Positions 4,092 to 63,998 of a stretch of 64,000 nt of DNA are shown piece by piece. Both the position numbers and the translations under genes were made by a program. The notes under the pieces are model-generated. The model did not search any database. It saw only the letters and a list, made by a program, of their open reading frames with translations, and was not told where the DNA came from. The stretch comes from an uncultured Candidatus Saccharibacteria bacterium (GTDB taxonomy: Bacteria > Patescibacteriota > Minisyncoccia > Phycocordibacterales > UBA9973). Each line of letters opens with the position of its first letter. The first letter of the stretch is position 1. Location: positions 1,229 to 65,228 of the forward strand of contig CAYRQJ010000003.1 of NCBI GenBank assembly GCA_964426555.1. The letters run 5' to 3'.

Positions 4092-6485
4092 CTATTGTTG
4101 AACTTTGTCTGTTTTTTTAGTATCACCTTCTTTTTCGTCTTTTGGTGTTTCTTCAATTTTTTGGTTAGTTAAACTGCCACCTGCACTAAATGTAGCAATT
4201 AATTCATCAACTTTAGTTGTATCGTTTATATATTTTTTTACTGTTTCTAGTGTTCTAATTACTGAATCTCTGTCTCCCAGTTTTTCATAAGTTAAAGCTA
4301 AAGATGAATATGCGTCAATATAGTTAGGAGAAATAGATACTGCTTTTTCAAACATTCTAGCAGCAGAACTATAATCTTGTTTAGAAAAATAAAGTAATCC
4401 TTTTTGATAAGGCAAACTAGCACTACTTGGGTTATAAGTCATAGCTTTATCTATTTGACGATAAGCAGCATCAGTATCACCATTAACCAAATCAATTTGA
4501 GCTAATAATAAATAAGAATCTGAAATTGCTGGATTTATATTTATAATTTGGTTTATGTATTCTTTTGCTAAATCATAATCTTTTGCATTTACAGCAATTT
4601 GAGCTTTTTTGTAAATAAGCGTCATATTGTTTGGACTATATTCTAAACCTTTATCAATTATTGTAATTGCATCTTTGTATGTAGATTTATCTCCAAAATT
4701 TAACACCATTTCATTTACAGCACTTAGTGCCATATAGTTTTGGTAATTCTGGGGGTTATAAGCTATAGAAATCTTTGCACTATCTGCTGCAGATTTTATT
4801 CTGTTTTGCACTAATGTAGTTAATTTTTCTTGAGATATTGTTTTGTCATTCAAAGCATAATTTATAGCTAGTAAATTAATGTTTGATAAAGATCTGGCAT
4901 AAATATCAAGCGGATTAATACTGATAGCTTTTTGTATATAATATTCAGCTTGGGCCAAACCTTGTTCGTTTAATTGTTCAAGTGATGCTTTATTTACTAA
5001 ATATCCAGAATATATTGATCCAAAGATACTTAAAAATCCAAGAGCTACAGCCACCATCATTACAATAACACCTAATATTCCAAAAAAACTATGTCGTGGA
5101 TCATTTATAAATACAAATAATTTTGGACTTTTTTCTTTTATAGTATTGATATATGAAATAAACATTCCCCACAATGCAACACTGCTAATAAATAAAGCAT
5201 TGTTTGGGTTATCAAATAAAAACAAAACAAAAGTATAAGCAACCAATGCAGCGTATATTGTTAATTCTCTTGATTTTGATTTATTTACAAAATCAAAATT
5301 AAATATTGAAAAATATTTTAAAATAAATAAAATTACAAAATAAATTAATAGTAGTGAGCCAACAGCACCAATAGTAGTAATCAATGTGAAGAATAAACCA
5401 ATTGATTTATTAAACGAAGCATTCCAGTATTGTGTTTTAAAAAACTGACCACCAGATAATTTGTATTTACCAGATTCCCATGTTTGGTTATAACGATTTG
5501 GCCCAATTGATGTTACAGGATTATGCCAATAAGAATTTTTTATTATTTTAATAGAAGAAACCAAAGTTGGTCTTGGTTCACTATTTGTAAAATAAAATGG
5601 TTTTCCAGAAACAAGTTTTGCAATATTTCTAGCTCCAACAATTGCAACAAAAGAACAAATTAAAATAATAAATGCAAATTTTGAAAAACTACGTTTAATA
5701 GTTTGGTTTTCTGACCCATCAATTGTATTTTTGTCTATATTTTGAGTTGGCATTAATTTATATATAAACAACGACAAACCAACCATTCCTAAGATAAACC
5801 AAACAAATGTATAATTAAATATAAACAAATAAAATAAAGACAAGCCCATAAACACTAAAGACCATATCTTCATTGGTTTGTTCCAAAAATTCTTTTCAAG
5901 TGTAATGGTAATTAAAATAACAAATCCAGCAAGAAATATTGCCATGTCATTGTATGTTCCAATTAAATTAGAGTTAGTTAATGATATAAAAAATTTTGGG
6001 AATTTAGCTACATATGGAACAAAAATATTGATTGTAGAAAAAACCAAAGCAATAATACCAGTAAGATAGATAGTTTTTATTATTTTAGATATAAAATTAT
6101 AACCTTGACCCCAAAGAGAAATTAGAAATAAATAAATAAAAGCTATAGCAAGTGAAGCAACAGTTCCAAAATCAAAACCTGTTCCAAGTATGGAATTAGT
6201 TTTGTTAGGTAAAAAAAATGTTATAGCAGCAGTAGCTACAATACTTAAAAGAAGAACATAAATTAATCTTCCTCGTGGAAAAGCAAATCGTCCAACTGTA
6301 ATTGCATCCAAAAGCCATAATATTGTACCTAAAAAGGCTGCAGTGGTTAAAATAATACCTTTTGAAGCTATCATACCTAATGGTAAAAAAGGTATAAACA
6401 AAACTAAAGATATACCCAACGCCCAAAGCATTATTTGTAATCCTAATTTAGACATTTTTGTTAGAGCAAAACTATTTGTATCCAT
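4092..6485 (-). CDS. polytopic membrane protein (O-antigen ligase/Wzy-like N-terminal domain) fused to C-terminal TPR repeats
   Basis: 797 aa. About 12 hydrophobic helices in the first ~480 aa; the C-terminal ~300 aa has repeated TPR-like 34-aa units ('AEYYIQKAISINP', 'AITIIDKGLEYSPNN', 'AKEYINQIININP', 'AYRQIDKAMTYNP', 'AARMFEKAVSISPNY'). Confidence 0.55.
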   Translation of the reverse strand: MDTNSFALTKMSKLGLQIMLWALGISLVLFIPFLPLGMIASKGIILTTAAFLGTILWLLDAITVGRFAFPRGRLIYVLLLSIVATAAITFFLPNKTNSILGTGFDFGTVASLAIAFIYLFLISLWGQGYNFISKIIKTIYLTGIIALVFSTINIFVPYVAKFPKFFISLTNSNLIGTYNDMAIFLAGFVILITITLEKNFWNKPMKIWSLVFMGLSLFYLFIFNYTFVWFILGMVGLSLFIYKLMPTQNIDKNTIDGSENQTIKRSFSKFAFIILICSFVAIVGARNIAKLVSGKPFYFTNSEPRPTLVSSIKIIKNSYWHNPVTSIGPNRYNQTWESGKYKLSGGQFFKTQYWNASFNKSIGLFFTLITTIGAVGSLLLIYFVILFILKYFSIFNFDFVNKSKSRELTIYAALVAYTFVLFLFDNPNNALFISSVALWGMFISYINTIKEKSPKLFVFINDPRHSFFGILGVIVMMVAVALGFLSIFGSIYSGYLVNKASLEQLNEQGLAQAEYYIQKAISINPLDIYARSLSNINLLAINYALNDKTISQEKLTTLVQNRIKSAADSAKISIAYNPQNYQNYMALSAVNEMVLNFGDKSTYKDAITIIDKGLEYSPNNMTLIYKKAQIAVNAKDYDLAKEYINQIININPAISDSYLLLAQIDLVNGDTDAAYRQIDKAMTYNPSSASLPYQKGLLYFSKQDYSSAARMFEKAVSISPNYIDAYSSLALTYEKLGDRDSVIRTLETVKKYINDTTKVDELIATFSAGGSLTNQKIEETPKDEKEGDTKKTDKVQQ

Positions 6486-10194: not shown

Positions 10195-10836
10195 ATGAAA
10201 ATTGGGCAACAAGCAAAATCTGCTGGTAAAATTAAAAAACCAAGCAAAAATAATATTGTAAATTTTACAACATGGATTGGGTCAAACGAATCGTTGATTA
10301 TTCATTCCATTGTATTTGGGTTCTTTTTTTTAATCTCAATACTGGGTGCTGATTTTGATAAAATATTATTAGTATTAACTACACTGGTATCACTGGAAGC
10401 AATATATTTGTCGATTTTTATTCAAATGAGTGTAAACCGCCAAGGAGAACAATTAGAAATAGTCTCTGAAGACATTGAAGAAATTCAAGAAGATGTGGAA
10501 GAAATTCAAAAAGATGTGGAAGGGATTGAAGAAGATATTGATGAAATTCAGGAAGATGTGGAAGAAATTGAAAAAGACATTGATGAAATTCAGGAAGATG
10601 TAGAAGAAATTCAGGAAGATGTAGATGAATTACCAAATACTCCAAACACAAAAAAATCTATTACAAAAGATAGTATCGATTCAAAACAAAACGATTTAAA
10701 TAAAAATATTCTTACACTACTACAAAGTATGGATCAAAAAATTCAAGACTTACAAAAAGAATTAGCTATAAGTAAGTCTAAAGAAGCAAAAACAGATTCT
10801 ATAACAAAAAAAGTAGCAAAGTTAATAAAAAAATAA
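10195..10836 (+). CDS. DUF1003-family membrane protein with C-terminal acidic heptad-repeat (coiled-coil) region
   Basis: 213 aa. 'NFTTWIGSNESLIIHSIVFGFFFLISILG...LVSLEAIYLSIFIQMSVNRQ' matches the DUF1003 two-helix core. It is followed by 8 perfect heptads (EDIEEIQ/EDVEEIQ/KDVEGIE...) and a Lys-rich tail. Confidence 0.55.
   Translation: MKIGQQAKSAGKIKKPSKNNIVNFTTWIGSNESLIIHSIVFGFFFLISILGADFDKILLVLTTLVSLEAIYLSIFIQMSVNRQGEQLEIVSEDIEEIQEDVEEIQKDVEGIEEDIDEIQEDVEEIEKDIDEIQEDVEEIQEDVDELPNTPNTKKSITKDSIDSKQNDLNKNILTLLQSMDQKIQDLQKELAISKSKEAKTDSITKKVAKLIKK
10468..10635 (+). repeat. 8 tandem 21-nt (heptad-encoding) repeats inside the DUF1003 gene
   Basis: Direct read: gaagacattgaagaaattcaa / gaagatgtggaagaaattcaa / aaagatgtggaagggattgaa ... 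In frame with the CDS; a-d positions are I/V, the rest D/E/Q/K. Confidence 0.8.
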
Positions 10837-30322: not shown

Positions 30323-30395
30323 ACTGTATGCCATATAAATATATAAAATCCCGGAATACGGGGTTTTATATATTTATGCTAGAATACATTTATGG

Positions 30396-30592
30396 ATCCC
30401 GTTAGAGATGATGTTGTTAAACAATTATACGAAAATTATAAATACAGAATTATAGTAAAAATAATAAGCGTTATTTAATTAAAGACGGAAACGCCTAATA
30501 TATCATGGAACAAAGTTATATAAAATTATTAATTAATAAAATAGGAGTACCTGATTTACAAGGATTAGGCGATTCCTATCTCTAACGGGATG
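30396..30592. repeat. diverged copy (D) of the GTCCCGTTAGA-ended palindromic cassette; outer end abuts the ATG of the 87-aa gene
   Basis: Left arm ggATCCCGTTAGAGATg (30395-30410). Right arm ATCTCTAACGGGATG (30577-30592), whose ATG is the start of ORF 30590..30853. AT-rich core between the arms. Confidence 0.5.
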
Positions 30593-30853
30593 GAAACACT
30601 AATACACGCTGATATATTTTTCTTTATTGCATCTATTGCAACTATTATTTTTGTAATCTTAATTTCAATTGCATTGTTTTATTTAATAGGAATATTGAAA
30701 AATGTTAAAAATGCTACAAATTTACTACATGGTAAAATTGAAACCGCTAGCGACAATTTAGAAGCAATGCGCCGAAAAATATCTGAAAGCTTAATTTTTA
30801 ATCTTATCTTCGCCCCAAAGCCCAAAAAAGCTAAACATACTAAGAAAGACTAG
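30590..30853 (+). CDS. hypothetical small membrane protein
   Basis: 87 aa with one TM ('FFFIASIATIIFVILISIALFYLIGIL'). Start codon is fused to the cassette arm. Confidence 0.4.
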   Translation: METLIHADIFFFIASIATIIFVILISIALFYLIGILKNVKNATNLLHGKIETASDNLEAMRRKISESLIFNLIFAPKPKKAKHTKKD

Positions 30854-37781: not shown

Positions 37782-39047
37782 TTATTTTGCAATTCTAACT
37801 TGGCCACCCATATATGGACGTAGTACCTCGGGAATTATTATACTACCATCAGCTTGTTGGAAATTTTCTACCAATGCTGCAGGTAAACGACTGGTTGCAC
37901 AAGCAGTATTGTTTAAAGAATGAACAAATCTTAGTTTTCCATCAGTATCGCGATATTTTATGTTTAGTCTACGAGTTTGAAAATCATGAAAATAAGAAGA
38001 AGAATGTGTTTCTCTGTATTTGTTTTGTGATGGCATCCAAGCTTCGATGTCGTATTTTTTTACCTGACCTAAACCAAGATCCCCTCCGCAGTTTACAACT
38101 ACATGATAAGGTAAACCTAGTTCACGCATTAAATGTTCTACATGAGCTGTAATTTCTTCGTGCCATTTTACAGATTCTTCATGATTGGCTTCTGTTAAAA
38201 TAACTTGTTCAATTTTAAAAAATTCATGAACACGAATTATGCCTTTGGTATCAGCACCGTGCTTACCAGCTTCTGCACGGAAACATGGAGAAAATGCAAT
38301 ATATTTTTTAGGTAAATCTGTTTGTTCGATTACTTCGTTCATATGGTAACCCATAGTAGCTACTTCGGCAGTACCAGCTAAATATTCATTTTCGCCTACT
38401 TTATATAAATCATCTTCTGACTGTGGAAGCATTCCGGTACCAATAAGAGATTCTTTACGCACAAGTGATGGCACTATCATAGGAGTATAACCTTGGTCAA
38501 TAAAATAATTCAAAAAATATTGCCATAAAGCAAAAAATAATTTTACTCCATCATTTTTCATAAAATATCCACGAAATCCAGAAACCTTTACTCCTCGTTC
38601 AAAATCAACCATATTTAAATTCTCCATTAGTTCAATATGGTCTTTGGGTGTAAATTCAAATTGTGGAATATCTCCCCATACACGAATTTCTACATTGTCT
38701 TCGTCACTGTCCCCGTCTGGCACAGACATGTCTGGAACATTTGGAACTTCTAACATCATCTTTTGCCAATTTGTAATAATATTACGCAAAGATTCTTCTT
38801 TTGTTTGAAGTTCATCTTTTACAATTTTCATTTCTTCCAGTGCGGTAGTTTTTTCATCTGCTGAAAGATTGGCAATATTAGCTGAAACTGCATTTTGACG
38901 ACTTCGAAGTTCTTCGACTTCTTTTAACAGAGACAATCTCTGGTCGTCCAAATTAACTAGTTCATCAATATTTAAATTAATGTGTTTTTTAGTTATTGCA
39001 TTTTTAACAATATCGGTATTTTCGCGAATGAATTTAATGTCTAACAT
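37782..39047 (-). CDS. serS: seryl-tRNA synthetase
   Basis: 421 aa. N-terminal coiled-coil arm 'MLDIKFIRENTDIVKNAITKKH...' and class II core 'FRAEAG'/'RVHEFFKIEQV'. Start codon fused to a cassette arm. Confidence 0.9.
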   Translation of the reverse strand: MLDIKFIRENTDIVKNAITKKHINLNIDELVNLDDQRLSLLKEVEELRSRQNAVSANIANLSADEKTTALEEMKIVKDELQTKEESLRNIITNWQKMMLEVPNVPDMSVPDGDSDEDNVEIRVWGDIPQFEFTPKDHIELMENLNMVDFERGVKVSGFRGYFMKNDGVKLFFALWQYFLNYFIDQGYTPMIVPSLVRKESLIGTGMLPQSEDDLYKVGENEYLAGTAEVATMGYHMNEVIEQTDLPKKYIAFSPCFRAEAGKHGADTKGIIRVHEFFKIEQVILTEANHEESVKWHEEITAHVEHLMRELGLPYHVVVNCGGDLGLGQVKKYDIEAWMPSQNKYRETHSSSYFHDFQTRRLNIKYRDTDGKLRFVHSLNNTACATSRLPAALVENFQQADGSIIIPEVLRPYMGGQVRIAK

Positions 39048-39170
39048 CCCGTTTAGAAGCAGGTCACGATCCAGATGGTCCCGTTAATGCTTTAGTTAAG
39101 TGAATAATGAATTTTATATTTATATATATCCTGTTCTTGTAATCGTGATCGTGGCTTCTAACGGGATAAC
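39045..39170. repeat. copy A of the palindromic intergenic cassette (between divergent serS and dprA)
   Basis: On the plus strand: CATCCCGTTTAGAAGCAGGTCACGATC ... AT-rich core ... GATCGTGGCTTCTAACGGGATaac. The CAT at 39045-47 is the serS start codon on the minus strand. Confidence 0.65.
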
Positions 39171-39211
39171 ATATAGCTATACTATAGCAAAAATAGTAAA
39201 ATGTATAAAGT

Positions 39212-40060
39212 ATGCAAATAAAAGAGTTATTAAAAAATGACTTTCCTAAAAGATTTGACGATTTACCACAATACCCAAAGAATCTTTTTATTATTGGTAA
39301 TTTGCCCGACCCAAATAAATATAAAAATTTAGTTATTGTAGGATCTCGTAAACATACCAGCTATGGTAAACAAGTTGTGCGTGACATTATAGCCGGACTT
39401 GCAACATATCCTATTAATATTGTATCCGGACTGGCTTTGGGAATTGATACACTGGCTCACGAAGAAGCGTTACGTCATGGAATGATAGTTACAGCATTCC
39501 CCGGTTCCGGATTAAATAAAAATTCTATACACCCGCAAAATAATGTAAGACTGGCAGAAAAAATTTTTGAATCCGGAGGATGCTTAATTTCCGAATACGA
39601 ACCCAATTTCAAAGCAACTCAATATAGCTTCCCACAAAGAAATCGTCTTATGGCTGGGTATGCTCACGCGGTATTAATAATTGAAGCCGAAGAAAAATCA
39701 GGAACATTAATTACTGCAAGACTAACCACAGAATATAATCGAGATTTATTAGTTGTACCTGGTTCAATTTATAATTCTACATCCAAAGGTACGAATTGGT
39801 TACTATCCCAAGGTGCTACCCCAGTAACATGTGCCAACGATGTATTGATTGCATTAGGTTTTGATATAAATACCCACACACAAAGAAATGATATTTCAAA
39901 AGAAGAAGCAGTAATACTGGAAATATTAACCGAACCCAAAACAAGAGACGAAATAATTCGTGAATGTGACGGTAGCACTGAAGAAATAAATAGTTTATTA
40001 ATGAAAATGGAACTACGTGGAATAATTGTGGAAGACGCTGGGTATTTTAGAGTAGTTTGA
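39212..40060 (+). CDS. dprA: DNA processing protein DprA (Smf)
   Basis: 282 aa. Rossmann-like 'VIVGSRKHTSYGKQVVRDIIAGLATYPINIVSGLALGIDTLAHEEALRHG' is the DprA signature. Confidence 0.85.
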   Translation: MQIKELLKNDFPKRFDDLPQYPKNLFIIGNLPDPNKYKNLVIVGSRKHTSYGKQVVRDIIAGLATYPINIVSGLALGIDTLAHEEALRHGMIVTAFPGSGLNKNSIHPQNNVRLAEKIFESGGCLISEYEPNFKATQYSFPQRNRLMAGYAHAVLIIEAEEKSGTLITARLTTEYNRDLLVVPGSIYNSTSKGTNWLLSQGATPVTCANDVLIALGFDINTHTQRNDISKEEAVILEILTEPKTRDEIIRECDGSTEEINSLLMKMELRGIIVEDAGYFRVV

Positions 40061-40108
40061 CAAATTATCTTATTAGTGGAATGATATATTAAATTTAATA
40101 TATCTACT

Positions 40109-40600
40109 ATGGACACAACAGAAATTCAAATTAACACTCTAAACATTACAACCAAGGTTCCTGTTAGAAGTAACTATGATGCAAAAAAATTTATTAAAGT
40201 TTCAGTTTCACTTGACTGGGATATTAAATTCTTTAAAACAGGACACCGGTTAAAAAAGTTTTTACGTGAAGAACATGTCAGAACATTGGATGAATTTATT
40301 CAACACTACGATCAACTATATGATAGCTGCCCATGGAAAGCATTGACTCAATTAGAAACATTCAATACTGCAATTCATAATATTCTGACCGGGCCTCCTT
40401 ATACAAAGGAAACTATGCAGTTTATTAAAAAGAACATAATTGGTCCAAGAAAAAGACCAAATGCAATTCAAAAGTCTTTCTTAAATGCTTTATATTTTTT
40501 TGAAACAATTTTTAATAAGTCAAAAGAATTCAAAGCTTTTGTAAATAAAAAAGCTAAAGATCTACAAATTACATGGGTTCCTATTTATAAATATTTATAA
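40109..40600 (+). CDS. hypothetical protein
   Basis: 163 aa, basic; sits between dprA and topA. Confidence 0.3.
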   Translation: MDTTEIQINTLNITTKVPVRSNYDAKKFIKVSVSLDWDIKFFKTGHRLKKFLREEHVRTLDEFIQHYDQLYDSCPWKALTQLETFNTAIHNILTGPPYTKETMQFIKKNIIGPRKRPNAIQKSFLNALYFFETIFNKSKEFKAFVNKKAKDLQITWVPIYKYL

Positions 40601-40604
40601 ATCA

Positions 40605-40656
40605 CCCAAAAAAATATTTTTTGCCAAGCAAACATGCTTGGCAATTTTATTTTTTA
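40605..40656 (+). terminator. intrinsic terminator (ttgccaagcaaacatgcttggcaa + T-run)
   Basis: 9-bp stem followed by T-rich run. Confidence 0.6.
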
Positions 40657-40740
40657 TTTGCCCCGTAGTAGATATTTTTTAAAAATATTCACTACAGGGT
40701 TTGCAAAAAAATTTAGTGTGTAGTATTAGTATAAGTACCT

Positions 40741-40858
40741 GTCCCGTTAGAAACCGCGATCGCAATAATAAAAAACATAAATATGAAAATACATTTAATC
40801 AACATTAAAAGAATAAATAAACAAGAACGTGATATGATCGCGATCTGTTTCTAACGGG
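40741..40858. repeat. copy B of the palindromic intergenic cassette; outer end runs directly into the topA ATG
   Basis: GTCCCGTTAGAAACCGCGATCGCAATA ... 65 nt AT-rich ... CGTGATATGATCGCGATCTGTTTCTAACGGG followed by ATG (40859). Contains the GCGATCGC and GATCGCGATC palindromes. Confidence 0.7.
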
Positions 40859-43129
40859 ATGAATAAGACATTAGTAATTGTAGAATCACCATCAAAAGCT
40901 AAAACTATTGAAAAATATTTAGGTACTGGTTTTACAGTGCGCGCATCTATTGGTCACATTCGTGATCTACCAAAATCAAACAAAATAGCTATTGATATTC
41001 CAGGTGGATTTATCCCCCATTACGAAGTTTCTAAAGGAAAAGAAAAAGTAATAAAAGAACTGCGTGATTTATCTACTAAAGCTGACAATATAATACTGGC
41101 AACCGACCCGGACCGCGAAGGTGAAGCTATAGCATGGCATTTACAAGAAGTTTTAAACGAAAAGCACAAAAAACCTTTGACAAATATTAAACGTGCTACT
41201 TTTCATGAAATTACAAAAGACGCAGTTTTAACTGCAATAAATCACCCTCGAGAAATTGACCAAGATTTACGTAAAGCTCAAGAAGCTCGTCGCGTACTGG
41301 ATCGTCTTGTGGGTTACGATTTGTCCGGAGTAATTTGGAAAAAAGTTCGTTATGGTTTGTCTGCGGGACGAGTTCAGTCCCCTGCAATGCGAATACTTTG
41401 CGAAAGAGAAAGAGAAATTTTAGCTTTTATACCCGAGCAATATTTTGTAATTGAAGCTGATTTAAAACCAGCCGGTAGTGAATTTTTAACATTTACATGC
41501 AGTATCGAACCAACAGATAAAAAAATAGTTGATGATATTTTAAAAAATGGCAAACAGGAAGATTGGTACGTAAAAGACATAAAAGACACCGAAGCAAAAC
41601 GTAGCCCAAAGCCACCTTTTGCAACATCGTCTTTACAACAAACAGCTTCAACAAGACTGGGATTTTCTCCATCTCGAACAATGCAAGTAGCCCAAAAATT
41701 GTATGAAGCCGGACATATTACATATATGCGTACAGATTCTACAAATCTTGGAACCGCCGCTATTGCTCAAATAAGTGACTTAATAAAAAAACAATACGGA
41801 GTAAATTATTTAGAAAACCGAGTATATAAAACAAAATCCAAAAATGCTCAAGAAGCTCACGAAGCAATTCGTCCTACTGACGTAAATAAAAAAAATATTG
41901 GCCAAACTGAAGAACAAAAGAAATTATATAACTTGATTTGGGAAAGAACCGTAGCATCACAAATGGTAGACGCACGTGTTATGCGCAGTAAAATTACAGC
42001 AAATATAAAAACAAATTCAATTCCCGATTTTACAGTAAATGGTTCAAAGTTAATTTTTGACGGATTTTTAAAAGTTGATACGGGAGCAATTGGCGAAGAA
42101 ACAATTCTACCAAAACTAAGTAAAGACGAAGATTTAAAATTAGTAGATTTACGTGATATTGAAAAATTTACTCAGCCACCAAATCGTTATACGGAAGCTG
42201 GACTAATTAAAGAATTAGAAGAACGTGGTATTGGCCGGCCTTCTACATATGCATCTATTATGCGCACTATTGAAGAACGCGGTTATGTAGATAAACAAGG
42301 TCGTACTTTATTCCCTACCGATACTGGTATGGTAGTTTCTGGATTTCTGGAAGAACATTTTGCAGACTATATTAGTGATACTTTTACAGCTGAGATGGAA
42401 GACAAGTTAGATGAAATTTCTGAAGGTAAAAGAGATTATAGTAAAACACTAACCGAATTTTATAATCCATTTTTAAAACTAGTTAAAGAAAAAGATAAAC
42501 TAGACAAAGCTACAAATATTGAGGGGGCACCTGATGATATTCTTTGCCCTAAATGTGGTAAGGCTATGATGGTAAAGCTGGCCCGTAATGGAAAATTTTA
42601 TTCTTGTATTGATTACCCAGATTGTATGGGTGCAAGAAAAATTGATGGCACAGAAATGCAAGGACCAAAAGAAATTGGTAGACCTTGTCCTAAATGTGGA
42701 ACCCCTGCCACAGAAGAAGTAATATACAACAAAGACGGCAGTGTTCGTAAAAGCCGAAAAACAAAAATAGTAGAACTGGGTAAATTGGTTCTGCGTGAAG
42801 GTAAATTTGGTAATTTTATATCTTGTTCTCGTTACCCTAAATGTAAATACATCGAAGAAGATGAAGAAGAAAAGAAGAAACGCGAAACTGGAGTAAAATG
42901 CCCACAATGTAGTGACGGTGTTATGAGCGAACGTCGCGGTAGATTTGGAATATTTTATTCTTGTAGTAATTACCCAACTTGCAAAAATGCGATAAAAGCT
43001 AAACCAACAGGAAATATTTGCCAAATGTGCAGTTCTTTAATGATGGATGGCACAAAAACTATACCGGAACGATGTAGTAATACTAAATGTCCAAACCATA
43101 GACCAGACAAACTAGAAAAAACCAAATAG
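40859..43129 (+). CDS. topA: DNA topoisomerase I with four C-terminal zinc ribbons
   Basis: 756 aa. Toprim 'TLVIVESPSKAKTIEKYLG', 'LATDPDREGEAIAWHL', catalytic 'ITYMRTDST' (Tyr), then 4 C4 modules (CPKCG...CIDYPDC; CPKCG...; CSRYPKC; CPQCS...CSNYPTC). Confidence 0.9.
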   Translation: MNKTLVIVESPSKAKTIEKYLGTGFTVRASIGHIRDLPKSNKIAIDIPGGFIPHYEVSKGKEKVIKELRDLSTKADNIILATDPDREGEAIAWHLQEVLNEKHKKPLTNIKRATFHEITKDAVLTAINHPREIDQDLRKAQEARRVLDRLVGYDLSGVIWKKVRYGLSAGRVQSPAMRILCEREREILAFIPEQYFVIEADLKPAGSEFLTFTCSIEPTDKKIVDDILKNGKQEDWYVKDIKDTEAKRSPKPPFATSSLQQTASTRLGFSPSRTMQVAQKLYEAGHITYMRTDSTNLGTAAIAQISDLIKKQYGVNYLENRVYKTKSKNAQEAHEAIRPTDVNKKNIGQTEEQKKLYNLIWERTVASQMVDARVMRSKITANIKTNSIPDFTVNGSKLIFDGFLKVDTGAIGEETILPKLSKDEDLKLVDLRDIEKFTQPPNRYTEAGLIKELEERGIGRPSTYASIMRTIEERGYVDKQGRTLFPTDTGMVVSGFLEEHFADYISDTFTAEMEDKLDEISEGKRDYSKTLTEFYNPFLKLVKEKDKLDKATNIEGAPDDILCPKCGKAMMVKLARNGKFYSCIDYPDCMGARKIDGTEMQGPKEIGRPCPKCGTPATEEVIYNKDGSVRKSRKTKIVELGKLVLREGKFGNFISCSRYPKCKYIEEDEEEKKKRETGVKCPQCSDGVMSERRGRFGIFYSCSNYPTCKNAIKAKPTGNICQMCSSLMMDGTKTIPERCSNTKCPNHRPDKLEKTK

Positions 43130-61488: not shown

Positions 61489-61890
61489 TTAACAGTTTTG
61501 ACTTTGACCAGGAACACAAGGAAGTGTTACATCAGCAGAACCAGGTGTACCAGTACCTAATGTACGACGTACGATAGCTACAAGACCCCAAATTGTTGTT
61601 ATAACGAATAGACCCAACACACCATACAAGATTGTACCTTGAGCTTTCTTTTGAGCTTCTTCCCCACCACTACGTCCTGCAATGATGAATTGCACTACAC
61701 CAATGATGATCATTAAGATAGCAAACCCTACTAAAACACGAATGAACAAGTTCATTAATGATTGACCAGTACTAAGGATTGTTCCTACTGTTTGTGGACC
61801 AGTATAAGCTGGACCAACGTTAGTAGTACCCTGAGCAAATGATGCAATAGGAGCCAAGAAACCGAAAGCAAGTATTAATAAATTACGCAT
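61489..61890 (-). CDS. TrbC/VirB2-like pilin paralog P2
   Basis: 133 aa. Signal peptide 'MRNLLILAFGFLAPIASFA', helix 'FIRVLVGFAILMIIIGVVQFIIAG', loop 'RSGGEEAQKKAQG', helix 'TILYGVLGLFVITTIWGLVAIVRRTLG'. Cys-containing C-terminal tail. Confidence 0.5.
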   Translation of the reverse strand: MRNLLILAFGFLAPIASFAQGTTNVGPAYTGPQTVGTILSTGQSLMNLFIRVLVGFAILMIIIGVVQFIIAGRSGGEEAQKKAQGTILYGVLGLFVITTIWGLVAIVRRTLGTGTPGSADVTLPCVPGQSQNC

Positions 61891-61979
61891 ATTAAATGAA
61901 AATTCTTTGTTAATAATATAGTCTTATTATACTATATATTCTTATAATCAAGCAAGGAAATAAGGTCTTTTGTGTATAA

Positions 61980-63326
61980 CTATTTTATAATAATCTTTAC
62001 TTCGTTAGTTACATAGACTTTACTAGTTGTAATATCTTTATAGTGATACATTATACAACTTTGTGTCCCGGAGCCTGGTATTGTATAAGTTGGAGAAGTA
62101 TAACCAGTATCAGCAGTTAAGCTTTTATTAGAATTTTTTTCTAAAATATTCGGTCCAATAGTTCCGTCTCCTCCAATTATTTTGCATTGCACAAATAACA
62201 CACCATTATATGGAGTAAATGATTTATTAACATCCCAACCAAATTTACCTGTTACTGATCCAGCTTTTTCGCTAATCTTACTAAATGTTAAATTAGCAGT
62301 ATAAGGATTTGGAGTAATAGCATCTTTTGTTATTAAAGGAAAATTACCACTTGTTGTACCAGAACTTGTATTATTATTTGAAGCTGGCGCTTGACTACCA
62401 GCAGTAAGTAAGCTTTTTGAAGTATAACCAAGAAATGTTTTATCAGATTTAAAGATATTCCAAAAACCACTGGTTTCCCCACTAACATTTAAAACAGTTC
62501 CATAAGCATTTTTAGTAATAATATTGGCTGATGAAGCAGTGCTTGGGTCAGATCTTAGGTTTGCACCATTTAGAGCATTTACATAGTATTGTTTCAAAGT
62601 TCCAGCTACAGGAGAATTATCCGCAGGAGGAGTTACTACTGGGTCAGTTTTAACTGAATCACCCTGAGAATTTGTTGGTTCTTTTGCTACATCTTTTTGA
62701 GTATTAGGGTCTACTACTGTTCCAGTATTTGTTCCGTTGGTAGTTGTATTACCAGTACCCACCCCGGTTGTTGTATTATTATTTAAAACTGCACCTGCTG
62801 TTGCTGTTCCGTTAGAATTATTTACATTATTAACTACCCCAGCATTGGAGCCTGAATTAACTAGATTATTATTGTTGGTAATACTGGAATTACTAACCCC
62901 ACTGTCTTTTGAAATATTTGAAACAGTATCAATAATTACATTTGAAATTAACTGTGCCCCAAGAATTATTGCGGCCCCAATCAAAGTCCAAGTTAAAGTT
63001 TTATGAGCTGTTTCGATTGCTTCTGGTTTACCACGAGCAACAACATATAAGAATCCAGAATATATAACCATTACAATAATAACTGGTATAGCAAACTCAA
63101 TCACAACTTTTAAAATTTTTGCAATTAAATCTTTGATTGTAGTAGTACAACCCGTACCACCTTTTTTGTCACAAATTGGATTATCAATTGCTACCTTTAA
63201 TTCAAAATTATCCGCCGGAGTAGCAGTTTTAGCATCTTGTGCAATTGCTAATTTAGGAAGCATTGCAAAGTTTCCAGAAAATACAACTATTAAAAACAAT
63301 AAAGATGTTAGAAAATTTTTTTTCAT
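61980..63326 (-). CDS. giant pilin-like paralog P3: TrbC/VirB2-like N-terminal module + N/T/G/S low-complexity linker + SH3b-like domain + unknown C-terminal domain
   Basis: 448 aa. Signal peptide, helix 'ILKVVIEFAIPVIIVMVIYSGFLYVVARG', loop 'KPEAIETAHKT', helix 'LTWTLIGAAIILGAQLIS'. A ~120-aa linker follows ('NNNNLVNSGSNAGVVNNVNNSNGTATAGAVLNNNTTTGVGTGNTTTNGTNTGT'), then 'YYVNALNGANLRSDPSTASSANIITKNAYGTVLNVSGETSGFWNIFKSDKTFLGYTSKSLL' (SH3_3-like). Start codon fused to the cassette C arm. Confidence 0.5.
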   Translation of the reverse strand: MKKNFLTSLLFLIVVFSGNFAMLPKLAIAQDAKTATPADNFELKVAIDNPICDKKGGTGCTTTIKDLIAKILKVVIEFAIPVIIVMVIYSGFLYVVARGKPEAIETAHKTLTWTLIGAAIILGAQLISNVIIDTVSNISKDSGVSNSSITNNNNLVNSGSNAGVVNNVNNSNGTATAGAVLNNNTTTGVGTGNTTTNGTNTGTVVDPNTQKDVAKEPTNSQGDSVKTDPVVTPPADNSPVAGTLKQYYVNALNGANLRSDPSTASSANIITKNAYGTVLNVSGETSGFWNIFKSDKTFLGYTSKSLLTAGSQAPASNNNTSSGTTSGNFPLITKDAITPNPYTANLTFSKISEKAGSVTGKFGWDVNKSFTPYNGVLFVQCKIIGGDGTIGPNILEKNSNKSLTADTGYTSPTYTIPGSGTQSCIMYHYKDITTSKVYVTNEVKIIIK

Positions 63327-63447
63327 CCCGTTAGAAGCAGATCGCGATCAAATCACGATTTTGCTTTATTATACTTATAATTTTACTTTTATTTAAATTC
63401 ATATATTTATTATCTTATCATATTGCGATCGCGGCTTCTAACGGGAC
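63324..63447. repeat. copy C of the palindromic intergenic cassette, in opposite orientation to copy B; outer end abuts the P3 start codon
   Basis: CATCCCGTTAGAAGCAGATCGCGATCAAATCACG ... AT-rich ... ATTGCGATCGCGGCTTCTAACGGGAC. The reverse complement aligns end-to-end with copy B. Confidence 0.65.
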
Positions 63448-63452
63448 AGGTT

Positions 63453-63998
63453 CTACTTTAAATTTAAAGCTTTATCTTTTAATTGTTCATAAGGCGCCGA
63501 ATCACCTGTATTTATACCAAAACCAAATGTTCTTCTTATAACAGCAACCAATGCATATACTGCTGTTATAACAAAAAAACCAATAATTCCATAAAGAATA
63601 AATTGTCTACCTTTTGCTTGAGATTCTTCACTTGCAGGATTACGAAGCATTACTGTGACTCCCCATACAAAAGAAACTGTAGCAATAGCAAAAATAAATG
63701 GCAGTATAGATACCCGAACTAAACAACCGATGTAATCTACATAACCACCAAATGTTTTATTGTTGCTAGCCACAGTACATGTATTTGTCCCAGCACTGCG
63801 CAAAATAGATGTATCATTATTAATATTACCTTCTGTTGTAATATTTACTTTTTCATTACCAACAACATTAGTATCACTGCCAACAAAATTATCCTCGGCT
63901 GTCCAGTTAACTGGACTATTTGTGTCGTCGGCTCCAAAACCACTAAACTGTGCATTTGTAAACACCGGTACAATACATATTAAAAGCATAACTAGCAC
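63453..63998 (-). CDS. TrbC/VirB2-like pilin paralog P4 (GTG/ATG start near window edge; may be slightly truncated by the window)
   Basis: 181 aa. Signal peptide 'MLVMLLICIVPVFTNA', ~90-aa Cys-containing N-terminal region, then helix 'LVRVSILPFIFAIATVSFVWGVTVML', loop 'RNPASEESQAKGRQ', helix 'FILYGIIGFFVITAVYALVAVIRRTFG' (C-terminus homologous to P2). Confidence 0.5.
   Translation of the reverse strand: MLVMLLICIVPVFTNAQFSGFGADDTNSPVNWTAEDNFVGSDTNVVGNEKVNITTEGNINNDTSILRSAGTNTCTVASNNKTFGGYVDYIGCLVRVSILPFIFAIATVSFVWGVTVMLRNPASEESQAKGRQFILYGIIGFFVITAVYALVAVIRRTFGFGINTGDSAPYEQLKDKALNLK

Follow-up and report, generated by a model that had tools for sequence, protein, structure and literature searches.

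A probable MITE-like hairpin element at the serS start codon of a Patescibacteria genome and its start-codon-associated relatives

The start codon of serS in the window, by which we mean the whole 64-kb stretch of DNA analysed here, coincides with the end of a repeated inverted-repeat cassette, which raises the question of how such an element came to lie exactly at codon 1 and how the gene is expressed behind it. Patescibacteria have genomes of roughly 1 Mb with almost no spare intergenic DNA, and the persistence of mobile DNA in genomes this compact is therefore an open question. The first-pass annotation described a serS start fused to a cassette end (minus strand, ...GATCGTGACCTGCTTCTAAACGGG-ATG), a second arm (GTAATCGTGATCGTGGCTTCTAACGGGATAAC, 39140-39171), a dprA start 45 nt past the element (dprA at 39212, element edge at 39166), a second degenerate half-site (TGGTCCCGTTAATGC, 39076-39090) and the same cassette end ahead of topA (...GATCGCGATCTGTTTCTAACGGG-ATG), and all five were found as described. 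The features of the locus are:

37782-39047, minus strand: serS, seryl-tRNA synthetase, 421 aa (Pfam Seryl_tRNA_N and tRNA-synt_2b)
39042-39046, minus strand: downstream duplicated target TGTTA, seen against the empty site in L004 and L126-L130
39047-39166, minus strand: element copy A, type 1, 120 nt, inverted-repeat (from filled versus empty sites and folding)
39076-39090, minus strand: internal partial copy of the 3' terminus, GCATTAACGGGACCA (from sequence)
39167-39172, minus strand: upstream copy of the original start, ATGTTA, adjoining the native promoter
39181-39209, minus strand: promoter-like site TTTATA-17-TATAGT, TG-extended (consensus match only)
39212-40060, plus strand: dprA, divergent neighbour (Pfam DNA_processg_A)

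On the minus strand, the 5' arm of copy A, TCCCGTTAGAAGCCACGATCACG, occupies 39166-39144 and the 3' arm, GATCGTGACCTGCTTCTAAACGGGA, which has one extra A (TCTAAACGGG), occupies 39071-39047. The final base of the element, 39047, is the A of the serS ATG, and serS codons 1-2, ATGTTA, consist of this base and the TGTTA at 39042-39046. The copy is thus flanked by a direct repeat of ATGTTA (39042-39047 and 39167-39172, minus strand). The claim that the cassette supplies the serS start codon therefore holds for the first base, A; the TG(TTA) belongs to the duplicated target, and the original ATGTTA still stands at 39167-39172, where it begins a 4-codon uORF, AUG UUA UCC CGU UAG. The promoter-like site, in a flank conserved among relatives, lies 8 nt 5' of the retained ATG, and this spacing suggests that the native serS transcript is leaderless or near-leaderless and would now read through copy A. 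The internal copy of the 3' terminus is able to pair with the 5' end of copy A, UCCCGUUA. On the other side, dprA has its own start without an element.

Filled and empty versions of the serS site were compared among relatives, all represented by MAGs and metagenome contigs. Filled sites read ATGTTA-TCCCG…CGGG-ATGTTA; specifically, the window and L001-L003, L144 and L153 have ...CCATATGTTA-TCCCG...CGGG-ATGTTAGAC, and the independent assemblies L001, L002, L003, L144 and L153 agree. Six relatives (L004, L126-L130) have an empty site, ...CCATATGTTAGAC..., in an intact 40-nt intergenic region. They keep the serS/dprA/topA synteny and the SerRS N-terminus MLDIKFIR... without the cassette, and serS is thus independent of the element. 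In L128 and L129 the site is empty, SerRS is 94-95% identical to that of L001 and the flanks are identical. At topA, all six relatives with readable sequence (L001, L004 and L126-L129) have an empty site; L130 was left out because of a run of N inside topA. Presence of the element is thus polymorphic among close relatives, which indicates that it is gained and/or lost precisely. The copies of the window and L001 have arms identical over 48 nt and loops only about 65-70% identical, and have in common the odd extra A and the 5-bp duplication; they reflect either one old insertion, later lost precisely several times, or a hotspot that was hit twice. In an unrelated organism (L146/L152) the topA start codon bears an insertion of independent origin, and of the two suggestions made earlier for the copies around this block, co-regulation and a hotspot, the hotspot is the better one.

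Four copies of the element (A-D) lie in the 64 kb, every one with its 3' end exactly at a start codon. The three beyond serS, and topA, are:

30397-30590, plus strand: element copy D, type 2, 194 nt, with a subterminal local hairpin and a TGGA duplication
40742-40859, plus strand: element copy B, type 1; it ends on the A of the topA ATG
40859-43129, plus strand: topA, with its ATG directly after the 3' end of copy B
63326-63446, minus strand: element copy C, type 1; it ends on the A of the start codon, ATG, of an ORF at 61980-63326

Copy C occupies the gap between two co-directional T4SS-pilin-like genes, the downstream one secreted. Copies B and C have no clear target duplication, and ACCTG is common to their 5' flanks. 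Around copy D, TGGA is repeated at 30393-30396 and 30591-30594; the old ATG is at 30392, 6 nt 3' of TAGAAT, and the new ATG, at 30590, is the start of an 87-aa membrane ORF. RNA fold z-scores of the window copies range from -3.3 to -6.3. The first-pass annotation lists neither copy C nor copy D, nor the direct repeat around copy A.

We scanned 596 Gb with an 18-nt gapped pattern containing no ATG. At least 120 loci matched, in Patescibacteria, Omnitrophota, Planctomycetota and Desulfobacterota. The earlier description of the cassette as repeated holds, and the family is widespread in ultra-small (Patescibacteria/CPR) bacteria. Copies are non-coding and 74-194 nt long, with ends Y-CCCGTTAGA-RRY (5') and RYY-TCTAACGGG-R (3') and loops unrelated between subfamilies; up to 3 occur per 8-kb locus. 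The terminal pair, which lies outside the search pattern, is complementary in 131/139 copies, and ungapped terminal pairing extends over positions -1 to 12 (119-139/139 Watson-Crick). A perfect 4-bp duplication (TGAA, TGGA, TAAA and others) flanks 88 of 134 copies. Duplications range from 2 to 6 bp (5 in copy A) and have the form TNNA (T in 112/139, A in 109/139), TTAA never being seen. Decayed copies are scarce (10 versus 135). Viral contigs gave 11 matches to the hairpin pattern, mostly without family features, and none to the element junction pattern.

The association with start codons extends through the family. An ORF of at least 50 aa adjoins 65 of the 135 copies, versus 1.2% per side at random positions. 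Copies ending in a T:A pair lie almost exclusively at A-TGRR, the first bases of genes, and 54/64 are at ORF starts versus 10/59 of the C:G-ended copies, which would give GTG and lie mostly elsewhere, some of them at TAA stops. The 3' arm of the A subtype, searched alone, was found at 12 loci (9 distinct sites, including serS, topA, ssb-like, rpsM-like and ppa-like genes) and is directly followed by ATG in 12/12. The left flank keeps A66 T66 G59 of 75, an upstream copy of the start being retained in 66/75 members, and many copies lie inside ATGA stop/start overlaps, both genes left intact. Of the copies whose duplication is ATGRR, about 90% lie at true starts, versus about 28% expected if all non-coding ATGRR sites are taken as equally usable. 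Start-codon fusion is therefore a systematic property of the family. The situation that the first-pass annotation set as showing it to be incidental, close relatives with the same serS N-terminus and no cassette arm, does occur (L004, L126-L130), but the fusion is still not incidental, given the 54/64 T:A-ended and 12/12 A-subtype copies on start codons. Targeting of leaderless promoters was considered and rejected, the difference in TANNNT at spacer 5-7 being weak (25% of targets versus 15% of control ORFs).

The hairpin itself is conserved. Across 30 type-1 copies, pairing holds in 99.2% of stem cells, compensatory changes occur at 7 pairs, and the observed covariation was reached by 0/500 shuffles; read on the gene-sense strand, the stems contain 15 G-U cells versus 5 non-pairs. 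This argues that the hairpin is under selection. One arm has a 4-nt bulge, and polarity is also evident elsewhere: orientation relative to the gene is biased about 30:1, the sense RNA fold is stabler than the antisense in 48/76 copies (p = 0.013), and the loops contain 32 GGGA motifs when read in the sense direction but a single one in the antisense. Rfam 15 at gathering score called only tRNAs in the 64-kb window, and nothing meaningful at E up to 10 over 38950-40950. No internal promoter was called within copies A or B, and across the family an internal outward promoter is unsupported (-10-like hexamers in 53 versus 43 elements per strand, at no fixed distance). The sequence of the 3' arm in copies A and B is unfit for a -10 box or a Shine-Dalgarno signal.

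We consider it likely that copy A is a member of a large family of small (about 90-190 bp) MITE-like, non-autonomous hairpin elements with start-codon specificity, which would be nearly silent at their hosts' starts. The features of MITEs are present: short non-coding copies, terminal inverted repeats, target duplication with filled and empty sites, and many dispersed copies. Insertion duplicates target sequence, about 4 bp in general and 5 bp at serS, and the terminal purine of the element together with the duplicated TG rebuilds ATG (or GTG) right after the 3' arm, so that the ORF is left untouched. The original ATG is retained on the upstream side, beside the native promoter and the signals for initiation. 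That promoter would transcribe the element as a hairpin leader, the retained AUG would start a short uORF entering the 5' arm as Pro-Val-Arg, and ribosomes translating the uORF, or compaction by the hairpin, may then pass initiation to the regenerated AUG at the stem foot, a mode of translation of the downstream gene that we infer. With such a hand-over an insertion would be nearly silent and could survive in very compact genomes. The start-codon association itself probably reflects a target preference for a 4-6-mer like the element junction combined with selection against all other insertions.

Precedents for initiation across a stem include the split ribosome-binding sites at the hairpins of phage T4 genes 38 and 25, and the CaMV shunt, which uses a short uORF plus a stem. 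By its sequence, the element is like these in its initiation signals, short ORF, stable stem and AUG at the stem foot; shunting is not known as an established mechanism in bacteria. A bypass of the kind seen in T4 gene 60 was also considered, but no stop codon follows a take-off codon.

No published description of the element was found in the literature on MITEs at start codons in CPR bacteria and on Patescibacteria repeats, and several known systems resemble it in part. Correia/NEMIS, ERIC and RUP elements are non-coding MITEs of about 100-150 bp with terminal inverted repeats and one long stem-loop; they duplicate their target, show filled and empty sites among relatives and are co-transcribed with neighbours. 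RNase III cleaves the NEMIS hairpins, and the influence of ERIC on mRNA depends on orientation (PMC2229807). Our element is like them in size, non-coding nature, terminal repeats, stem-loop, duplication and filled/empty sites. However, they duplicate TA and sit anywhere between genes, and none is reported to rebuild a start codon from its own terminal base; moreover, the termini of the present element are conserved across several phyla, the rest of its stem covaries and no cognate IS is known. Rickettsia palindromic elements (RPEs) are selfish palindromes of 105-146 bp that persist within essential genes of a reduced genome because they fit the reading frame (PMC2229807). Survival of a palindromic selfish element in a reduced genome through frame compatibility is common to both, but in-frame translation turns RPEs into additional peptide segments within proteins, whereas the present element precedes codon 1, the ORF is restored by duplication and only a short uORF enters the element.

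A link to the piggyBac superfamily and its prokaryotic relative IS1380 may lie in the CCC-starting terminal repeats of about 13 nt. These transposons make a 4-bp T..A duplication, TTAA with the variants TAAA, TCAA and TATG (PMC10813416). The T..A duplication and CCC-starting ends of our element are a resemblance only, and footprint-free excision as in piggyBac would fit the intact empty sites. Unlike piggyBac/IS1380, the element has an extra Y/R base outside the CCC (ends YCCC) and never uses TTAA; stem covariation and a lineage-specific duplicated 4-mer are not piggyBac properties, and no piggyBac- or IS1380-like transposase ORF recurs near copies. Integron attC sites are also imperfect palindromes (57-141 bp) recognised as folded single strands, in which only short boxes are conserved, extrahelical bases give polarity and the next gene starts just after the site, and the GTTAGA/TCTAAC of the element resembles the GTTRRRY/RYYYAAC core sites. 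The order is inverted, however: attC has RYYYAAC 5' and GTTRRRY 3', in cassette arrays beside intI, whereas the element has GTTAGA 5' and TCTAAC 3' (5' CCCGTTAGA ... TCTAACGGG 3') and neither arrays nor intI, and its flanking housekeeping genes are in conserved synteny. We rejected an attC identity on the reversed box order and the lack of arrays and integrase. REP/REPIN sequences are described as short palindromes tagged GTAG or CGTC with an associated RAYT and no target duplication (PMC3733652); the YCCCG ends, the duplications and the lack of a recurrent associated ORF near copies speak against this identity. Palindromic elements derived from IS200/IS605 have asymmetric ends and subterminal hairpins and insert 3' of a fixed tetra- or pentanucleotide without duplication; the symmetric terminal repeats and the direct repeats on both sides, variable in sequence, set the element apart.

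A search for a mobilising enzyme found no transposase or recombinase among the 55 window ORFs (Pfam). Clustering of 1301 neighbouring ORFs gave no ORF that recurs near the about 135 copies, and no transposase, recombinase or integrase; no long-range arm pair with matching duplication encloses an autonomous partner in about 1 Mb of loci. This lack of an autonomous partner, together with copies B and C without duplication and the variable duplication length, counts against a MITE reading.

Movement may instead depend on structure- or core-homology-dependent recombination and not on a DDE transposase, a hairpin or circle junction, TCTAACGGG-RTNNAY-CCCGTTAGA, meeting a matching 4-6-mer in the style of attC, CTX-phi or Crypton; we put this forward tentatively. 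The "duplication", with its variable length, would be the crossover core. The arms are conserved as structure: beyond 9 fixed nt, covariation is free at arm positions 10-12 and in the inner helix, a pattern not predicted for a DDE transposase that reads sequence. Related elements at different loci have the same duplicated 4-mer in 10/14 pairs (few and non-independent) versus 21% of unrelated pairs, a lineage link more in keeping with a crossover core carried along by the element than with classical transposition. The preferred targets, G-TAAA for C:G-ended and A-TGRR for T:A-ended copies, resemble the junction of the respective type; tandem copies have one common 6-mer (L052 7674-7895); and the 4-nt bulge would confer polarity like the extrahelical bases of attC. 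The lack of a transposase in the window and near copies is in line with such a route, but no integrase or recombinase accompanies the copies either, the junction pattern has no match in viral contigs, the box order is the reverse of attC and targets carry no half-site beyond the core.

Start codons might also stand out through survivorship alone, with insertion at any TNNA, no start targeting, and intergenic regions of about 40 nt tolerating only insertions that regenerate a start or stop; we think this unlikely. The target is indeed defined by few bases (A-T-G-R-R and no motif beyond them), of about 7600 ATGRR sites about 6200 are intragenic, where a hit would be lethal, C:G-ended copies (GTG) lie mostly away from starts and partly at TAA stops, and the few decayed copies are consistent with fast turnover. 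Yet non-start intergenic ATGRR sites outnumber starts about 2.5:1 and hold only about 10% of the ATGRR-duplication copies, T:A-ended copies almost avoid the TAAA/TTTA sites that C:G-ended ones tolerate well, and the orientation bias is explained only if one orientation is harmful.

It is very unlikely that the element is a host cis-regulatory 5' leader or operator, a domesticated regulon signal spread by descent that co-regulates serS, topA and others. Stem covariation, sense-strand G-U pairs, fixed polarity, the internal alternative-pairing motif, the position exactly at the start codon and the identity of arms over loops between the window and L001 would suit such a leader, in which case a trans-acting factor would bind CCCGUUAGA/UCUAACGGG and the carrier genes would respond together. 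However, the element is absent at serS and topA of close relatives whose genes are unchanged, target duplications and tandem copies occur, downstream genes across the family are functionally unrelated (housekeeping or membrane), copies are found at stop codons and in other phyla, and there is no Rfam match; as a sole explanation it is largely refuted by the empty sites. The co-regulation of serS, dprA and topA proposed by the first-pass annotation falls with it, given relatives without both copies, the unrelated downstream genes and the element-free dprA start. Chance palindromes or assembly artefacts have a negligible likelihood, for although by our own arithmetic about 500 matches to the pattern are expected in 596 Gb, so that some non-CPR and most viral matches may be chance, four copies within one window, several loci with multiple copies, the flanking duplications, the complementary terminal pairs and the agreement of independent assemblies exclude it for the window copies.

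The preferred reading, a nearly silent start-codon-specific hairpin family, offers one concrete answer to how mobile DNA persists in Patescibacteria: an insertion that rebuilds the start codon, at a site that lets a 120-bp element leave the ORF and native promoter intact. Patescibacteria are largely without Shine-Dalgarno signals, and the insertions offer natural experiments in such hosts on how translation starts downstream of a strong hairpin. Gene callers and start-site predictors will meet duplicated starts and spurious uORFs at element sites, the conserved 13-nt ends offer a way to trace the mobilising enzyme, and presence/absence polymorphism is usable as a strain-level marker in metagenomes.

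A more far-reaching version is possible, though we hold it with reserve: the elements may be cross-phylum selfish hairpins that use start codons and ATGA junctions as a safe harbour, carry the first start-codon base themselves, reach junction-core targets by structure- or homology-dependent recombination without a transposase of their own, and hand over initiation by uORF plus stem (termination at UAA-CGGG-AUG or a stem shunt), aided by an internal decoy of the 3' end. If true, the smallest bacterial genomes would show a new way for transposon and host to accommodate each other. Internal 3'-terminus copies of at least 5 nt are present in 15/76 sense and 0/76 antisense strands versus 2.6% of shuffled loops, and the base after the internal CGGG tracks the terminal pair of the element. 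A designed uORF stop at the UAA of the 3' arm was rejected as a general rule (13/56 copies) and is suggestive for a subset. In 22/76 copies the uORF frame stays open across the entire element (mean of the other five frames, 9.8), and 13 of the 22 terminate at UAA-CGGG-AUG; element length modulo 3 is biased 36:24:16.

The cassette beside serS is a mobile hairpin element with unusual start-codon specificity that is apparently undescribed. The sequence layout of the serS/dprA region matches the first-pass annotation exactly, and the observation made there is confirmed: on the minus strand the serS start is fused to one cassette end, ...GATCGTGACCTGCTTCTAAACGGG-ATG-TTA-GAC, and the same end recurs before topA, whose ATG at 40859 is preceded by ...GATCGCGATCTGTTTCTAACGGG. 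The opposite arm of copy A reads ...TCCCGTTAGAAGCCACGATCACGATTAC on the minus strand and is separated by 45 nt from the start of the divergent dprA (39212). Two more copies in the window, C and D, had been overlooked. The features are as follows.

37782-39047, minus strand: serS, with SerRS domains
39047-39166, minus strand: copy A, before serS
40742-40859, plus strand: copy B, before topA
63326-63446, minus strand: copy C, between two T4SS-pilin-like genes, ending on the ATG of ORF 61980-63326
30397-30590: copy D, 194 nt with a different interior, ending on the ATG of an 87-aa membrane ORF

Folded as RNA, all four copies form a long stem closed by UCCCGUUAGA/UCUAACGGGA, with the A of the AUG taken into the closing pair in each case and fold-energy z-scores of -3.3 to -6.3 versus shuffles. 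Copies B and C have no target duplication and share the 5' flank ACCTG. Their arms (40743-40766, 40836-40845 and 63340-63349) also carry GCGATCGC and GATCGCGATC, perfect palindromes with GATC sites that are conspicuous against a genome G+C of ~32%; the octamer GCGATCGC is identical to the HIP1 repeat of cyanobacteria.

Conserved synteny (serS <-> dprA - small ORF - topA - relA/spoT) was traced through SerRS homologues, whose sources bear Paceibacteria/Parcubacteria names; the organism itself is a Patescibacterium of that kind. The serS site is empty in L004, L126, L127, L128, L129 and L130, where the dprA-serS spacer is 38-40 nt (...GCTATAGTATAGCCATATGTTAGACAT...), and filled in the window, in the L001-L003 lineage and in L144 and L153 (...CCATATGTTA/TCCCGTTAGAAGCC...CTTCTAAACGGG/ATGTTAGAC); a filled site differs from an empty one by the element and a repeated (A)TGTTA. 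L128 and L129, with SerRS proteins 94-95% identical to that of L001 and identical flanks, have an empty serS site; the window is ~83% identical to all of these. The topA site is empty in all six relatives readable there (L001, L004 and L126-L129), that of L130 being unreadable owing to a run of N inside topA. Since cassette-free relatives keep the same synteny, serS does not need the cassette. Read from the filled and empty sites, the ATG that follows the cassette joins the terminal base of the element to a duplicated TG, and the earlier statement that the cassette supplies the serS start codon thus holds for one base and not for the whole codon.

The 24-nt arms of window copy A match those of the L001 copy exactly (0/48 differences, versus 8/47 in the flank), and the two copies share an extra A and a 5-bp repeat; their loops are only ~65-70% identical. 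The pair could represent a single old insertion, precisely lost several times, or two insertions at one hotspot; whichever origin holds, arm conservation far exceeds that of neutral DNA so diverged. In an unrelated organism, represented by metagenome contigs L146 (5496-5612) and L152, an independent insertion of type 1 (the class of copies A, B and C) lies exactly at its own topA start, gagtATGAAT/CCCG...CGGG/ATGAAACTTTTAATTGTAGAGTCACC; the same genes are entered repeatedly. The first-pass interpretation is partly right: of the explanations proposed for two copies around serS/dprA/topA, a hotspot for the element stands and a co-regulatory module does not.

A genome collection was scanned with CCCGTTAGA-N71-131-TCTAACGGG, a pattern that contains no ATG, and at least 120 loci matched. 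Taxa among the matches listed were mostly Patescibacteria of many classes (Saccharibacteria, Paceibacteria groups, Microgenomates, Doudna-, Uhr-, Moran-, Kerfeld- and Berkelbacteria, and Kazan), along with Omnitrophota, Planctomycetota (anammox lineages included), Desulfobacterota, Nitrospinota and others. By our own arithmetic, roughly 500 matches are expected by chance in 596 Gb. Features lying outside the search pattern argue that most matches are real: the base outside CCCG is complementary to that outside CGGG in 131/139 copies (T:A in 66, C:G in 64), arm positions 10-12 covary across these 139 copies, and a perfect 4-bp direct repeat stands beside the terminal bases in 88/134, most commonly TTCA/TGAA (35), TAAA/TTTA (22), TGGA/TCCA (11) or TGAG/CTCA (7). 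The element is Y-CCCGTTAGA-RRY ... RYY-TCTAACGGG-R with a TNNA duplication. Copies with decayed arms numbered 10, versus ~135 intact. Mini-hairpins of 28-37 nt with element termini (e.g., CCCCGTTAGAGAACGAAGTTCTCTAACGGGG; L105 3406-3434, L086 3322-3350, L106 3725-3752, L132 2558-2585 and L140 3736-3772) may be minimal or internally deleted forms. In L035 ('bacterium DX4.bin27'), inverted repeats of ~330 nt (2046-2369 and 4832-5155), each holding one 92-nt element, bracket a gene of 2.7 kb whose product is a secreted protein of 686 aa, and this segment may be composite or invertible. Tandem or closely stacked elements with one ATTCAT/ATGAAT between them (L052 7674-7895; L047 5899-6278) indicate repeated insertion, the target duplicated by one copy receiving the next.

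In 65/135 copies the next bases are an ATG or GTG from which an ORF of 50 aa or more begins, compared to 1.2% per side at random positions; by terminal pair, 54/64 T:A-ended versus 10/59 C:G-ended copies are at starts. A metagenome scan with the 3' arm of the copy A subtype alone, GTGACCTGCTTCTAAACGGG, gave 12 loci at 9 distinct sites, every one adjoining a real gene's ATG; among those genes are serS, the topA of another organism and genes with N-termini resembling SSB, S13 and pyrophosphatase, and the left flanks retain ATGAAT, ATGTAT or ATGGAT. The old start persists in the left flank of start-associated copies (A in 66, T in 66, G in 59 of 75 distinct copies, then R R), with no extended target motif. 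A left flank with a final C goes with a new GTG start (ATGAAC/.../GTGAA), showing that the first start-codon base comes from the element. Many copies sit in ATGA stop/start overlaps, the upstream TGA being kept by the left repeat and the start by the right. Insertion tolerated at any non-coding site, with no preference for starts, predicts ~28% at starts versus the ~90% observed, by an approximate count of the ATGRR sites present in those loci (ORF starts ~400, other non-coding ~1000, coding ~6200). Some C:G-ended copies lie on TAA stops. Those with G-TAAA-C duplications (L010, L015, L053, L083, L095, L102 and others) are mostly from non-Patescibacteria and not at starts, and in several the upstream ORF's TAA falls within the left repeat or the ORF is ended by the arm's TAG; stop codons may be an equivalent safe site for this subtype.

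The mobile-element reading is well supported. The element behaves like a bacterial MITE (Correia/NEMIS, ERIC, RUP; PMC2229807) in size, inverted repeats, duplication, copy number and polymorphism, and no cognate IS was found in the window or in ~1 Mb of loci. Unlike all MITEs in the descriptions found, it combines exact start-codon placement with codon regeneration from a terminal base, has ends conserved across phyla and keeps a fixed polarity. It is neither a REP/REPIN member nor an IS200/605 derivative, nor is it an attC site, given its reversed box order and the lack of arrays and of intI. No Rfam family matches it, and a literature search found no description of the motif or of the start-codon element concept.

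Thirty type-1 copies, including A, B and C, share an outer helix of 13 bp and an inner one of 7 bp, with a 4-nt bulge (A[C/T]CT) between them that is always on the ATG-side arm. Stem cells are paired in 99.2%; compensatory changes occur at 7 pairs (44 cells), a covariation reached by 0/500 shuffles, and one-sided changes on the gene-sense strand give G-U in 15 cells versus non-pairs in 5. The sense RNA folds more stably than the antisense in 48/76 copies (mean -1.6 kcal/mol, p = 0.013), which may come partly from purine-rich loops. Orientation relative to the gene is strongly biased, at 15:0 and 12:0 in two type-1 samples and 15:4 for types 2 (the class of copy D) and 3, and GGGA occurs in loops 32 times in sense versus once in antisense. 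Many loops contain, soon after the 5' arm, an internal copy of the 3' terminus, ...(TAA)CGGG-R, whose last base tracks the terminal pair (CGGGA in T:A, CGGGG in C:G elements); copies of at least 5 nt occur in 15/76 sense and 0/76 antisense strands and in 2.6% of shuffled loops. The degenerate half-site noted in the copy A core proved to be such a copy, situated in A toward the 3' side, immediately before the 3' arm; its pairing with the 5' end could free the 3' arm and AUG.

Upstream of serS, 8 nt separate a native promoter-like site, TTTATA-17-TATAGT (39209-39181), from the retained ATG copy. Similar TANNNT-N6-ATG arrangements occur commonly in these genomes, and few starts (~15%) have a Shine-Dalgarno-like motif; this suggests that leaderless or short-leader mRNAs are widespread in these lineages. 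In loci L006-L125 generally, a -10-like hexamer before the ATG peaks at spacer 6 (69/725 control ORFs); copy D offers an example, TAGAAT-N6-ATG (30380-30394), with its serS counterpart region at 39173-39209. Given a promoter-like site near the old AUG and no consistent internal promoter in the elements, a native transcript should start at or near that AUG and carry the entire hairpin. The old AUG would open, in the standard geometry, a uORF AUG-RRY-CCC-GUU-AGA (M-x-P-V-R) that must melt the stem foot; the copy A sequence is AUG UUA UCC CGU UAG. This frame is open through the entire element in 22/76 copies, whereas the five remaining frames average 9.8; of the 22, 13 stop at the UAA of the arm, with 4 nt left to the main AUG (UAA-CGGG-AUG), and 4 stop at an AUGA overlap; element length modulo 3 is distributed 36:24:16. 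Leader compaction by the stem is an alternative, and the open frames and UAA-CGGG-AUG endings favor a hypothetical hand-over from the uORF to the regenerated AUG, by termination then re-initiation or by AUG unmasking, perhaps helped by the internal decoy of the 3' terminus.

The 64-kb window holds only housekeeping genes, with no transposase or recombinase, and no partner enzyme was found there, in ORFs neighboring the copies or between long-range arm pairs. A hypothetical mobilizing enzyme could be a trans-acting DDE transposase: the 4-bp TNNA duplications, CCC-initiated 13-nt ends and footprint-free empty sites recall piggyBac, a likeness and not a test. IS1380 is the prokaryotic relative of piggyBac (PMC10813416). 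Structure- or core-homology-dependent recombination could instead account for freely covarying arms, repeats varying from 2 to 6 bp, tandem copies with one common 6-mer (L052) and the same 4-mer at different loci in 10/14 pairs of related elements versus 21% of unrelated pairs, the 14 pairs being few and not independent.

Elsewhere in the window, T4SS_pilin-like domains occur in three successive minus-strand genes (61492-61890, 61983-63326 and 63456-63998; 61492-63998 overall); the one ending at 63326 has an added SH3 domain, and copy C fills the entire gap between the second and the third. Eight to ten units of a 21-nt tandem repeat (10447-10656) lie inside ORF 10195-10833 (DUF1003/DUF948-like) and encode an acidic E-D-x-E-E-I-Q heptad-like repeat. 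Finally, a smaller second palindromic insertion (40657-40704) follows the terminator of ORF 40109-40600 and precedes the topA promoter, with the palindrome CCCGTAGTAGATATTTTTTAAAAATATTCACTACAGGG at 40662-40699 and TTTGC direct repeats on both sides. It restores a TTTGCA -35-like box, has a similar counterpart in L128, is absent from L001, L129, L004 and L130, and may be a distant relative of the element superfamily.
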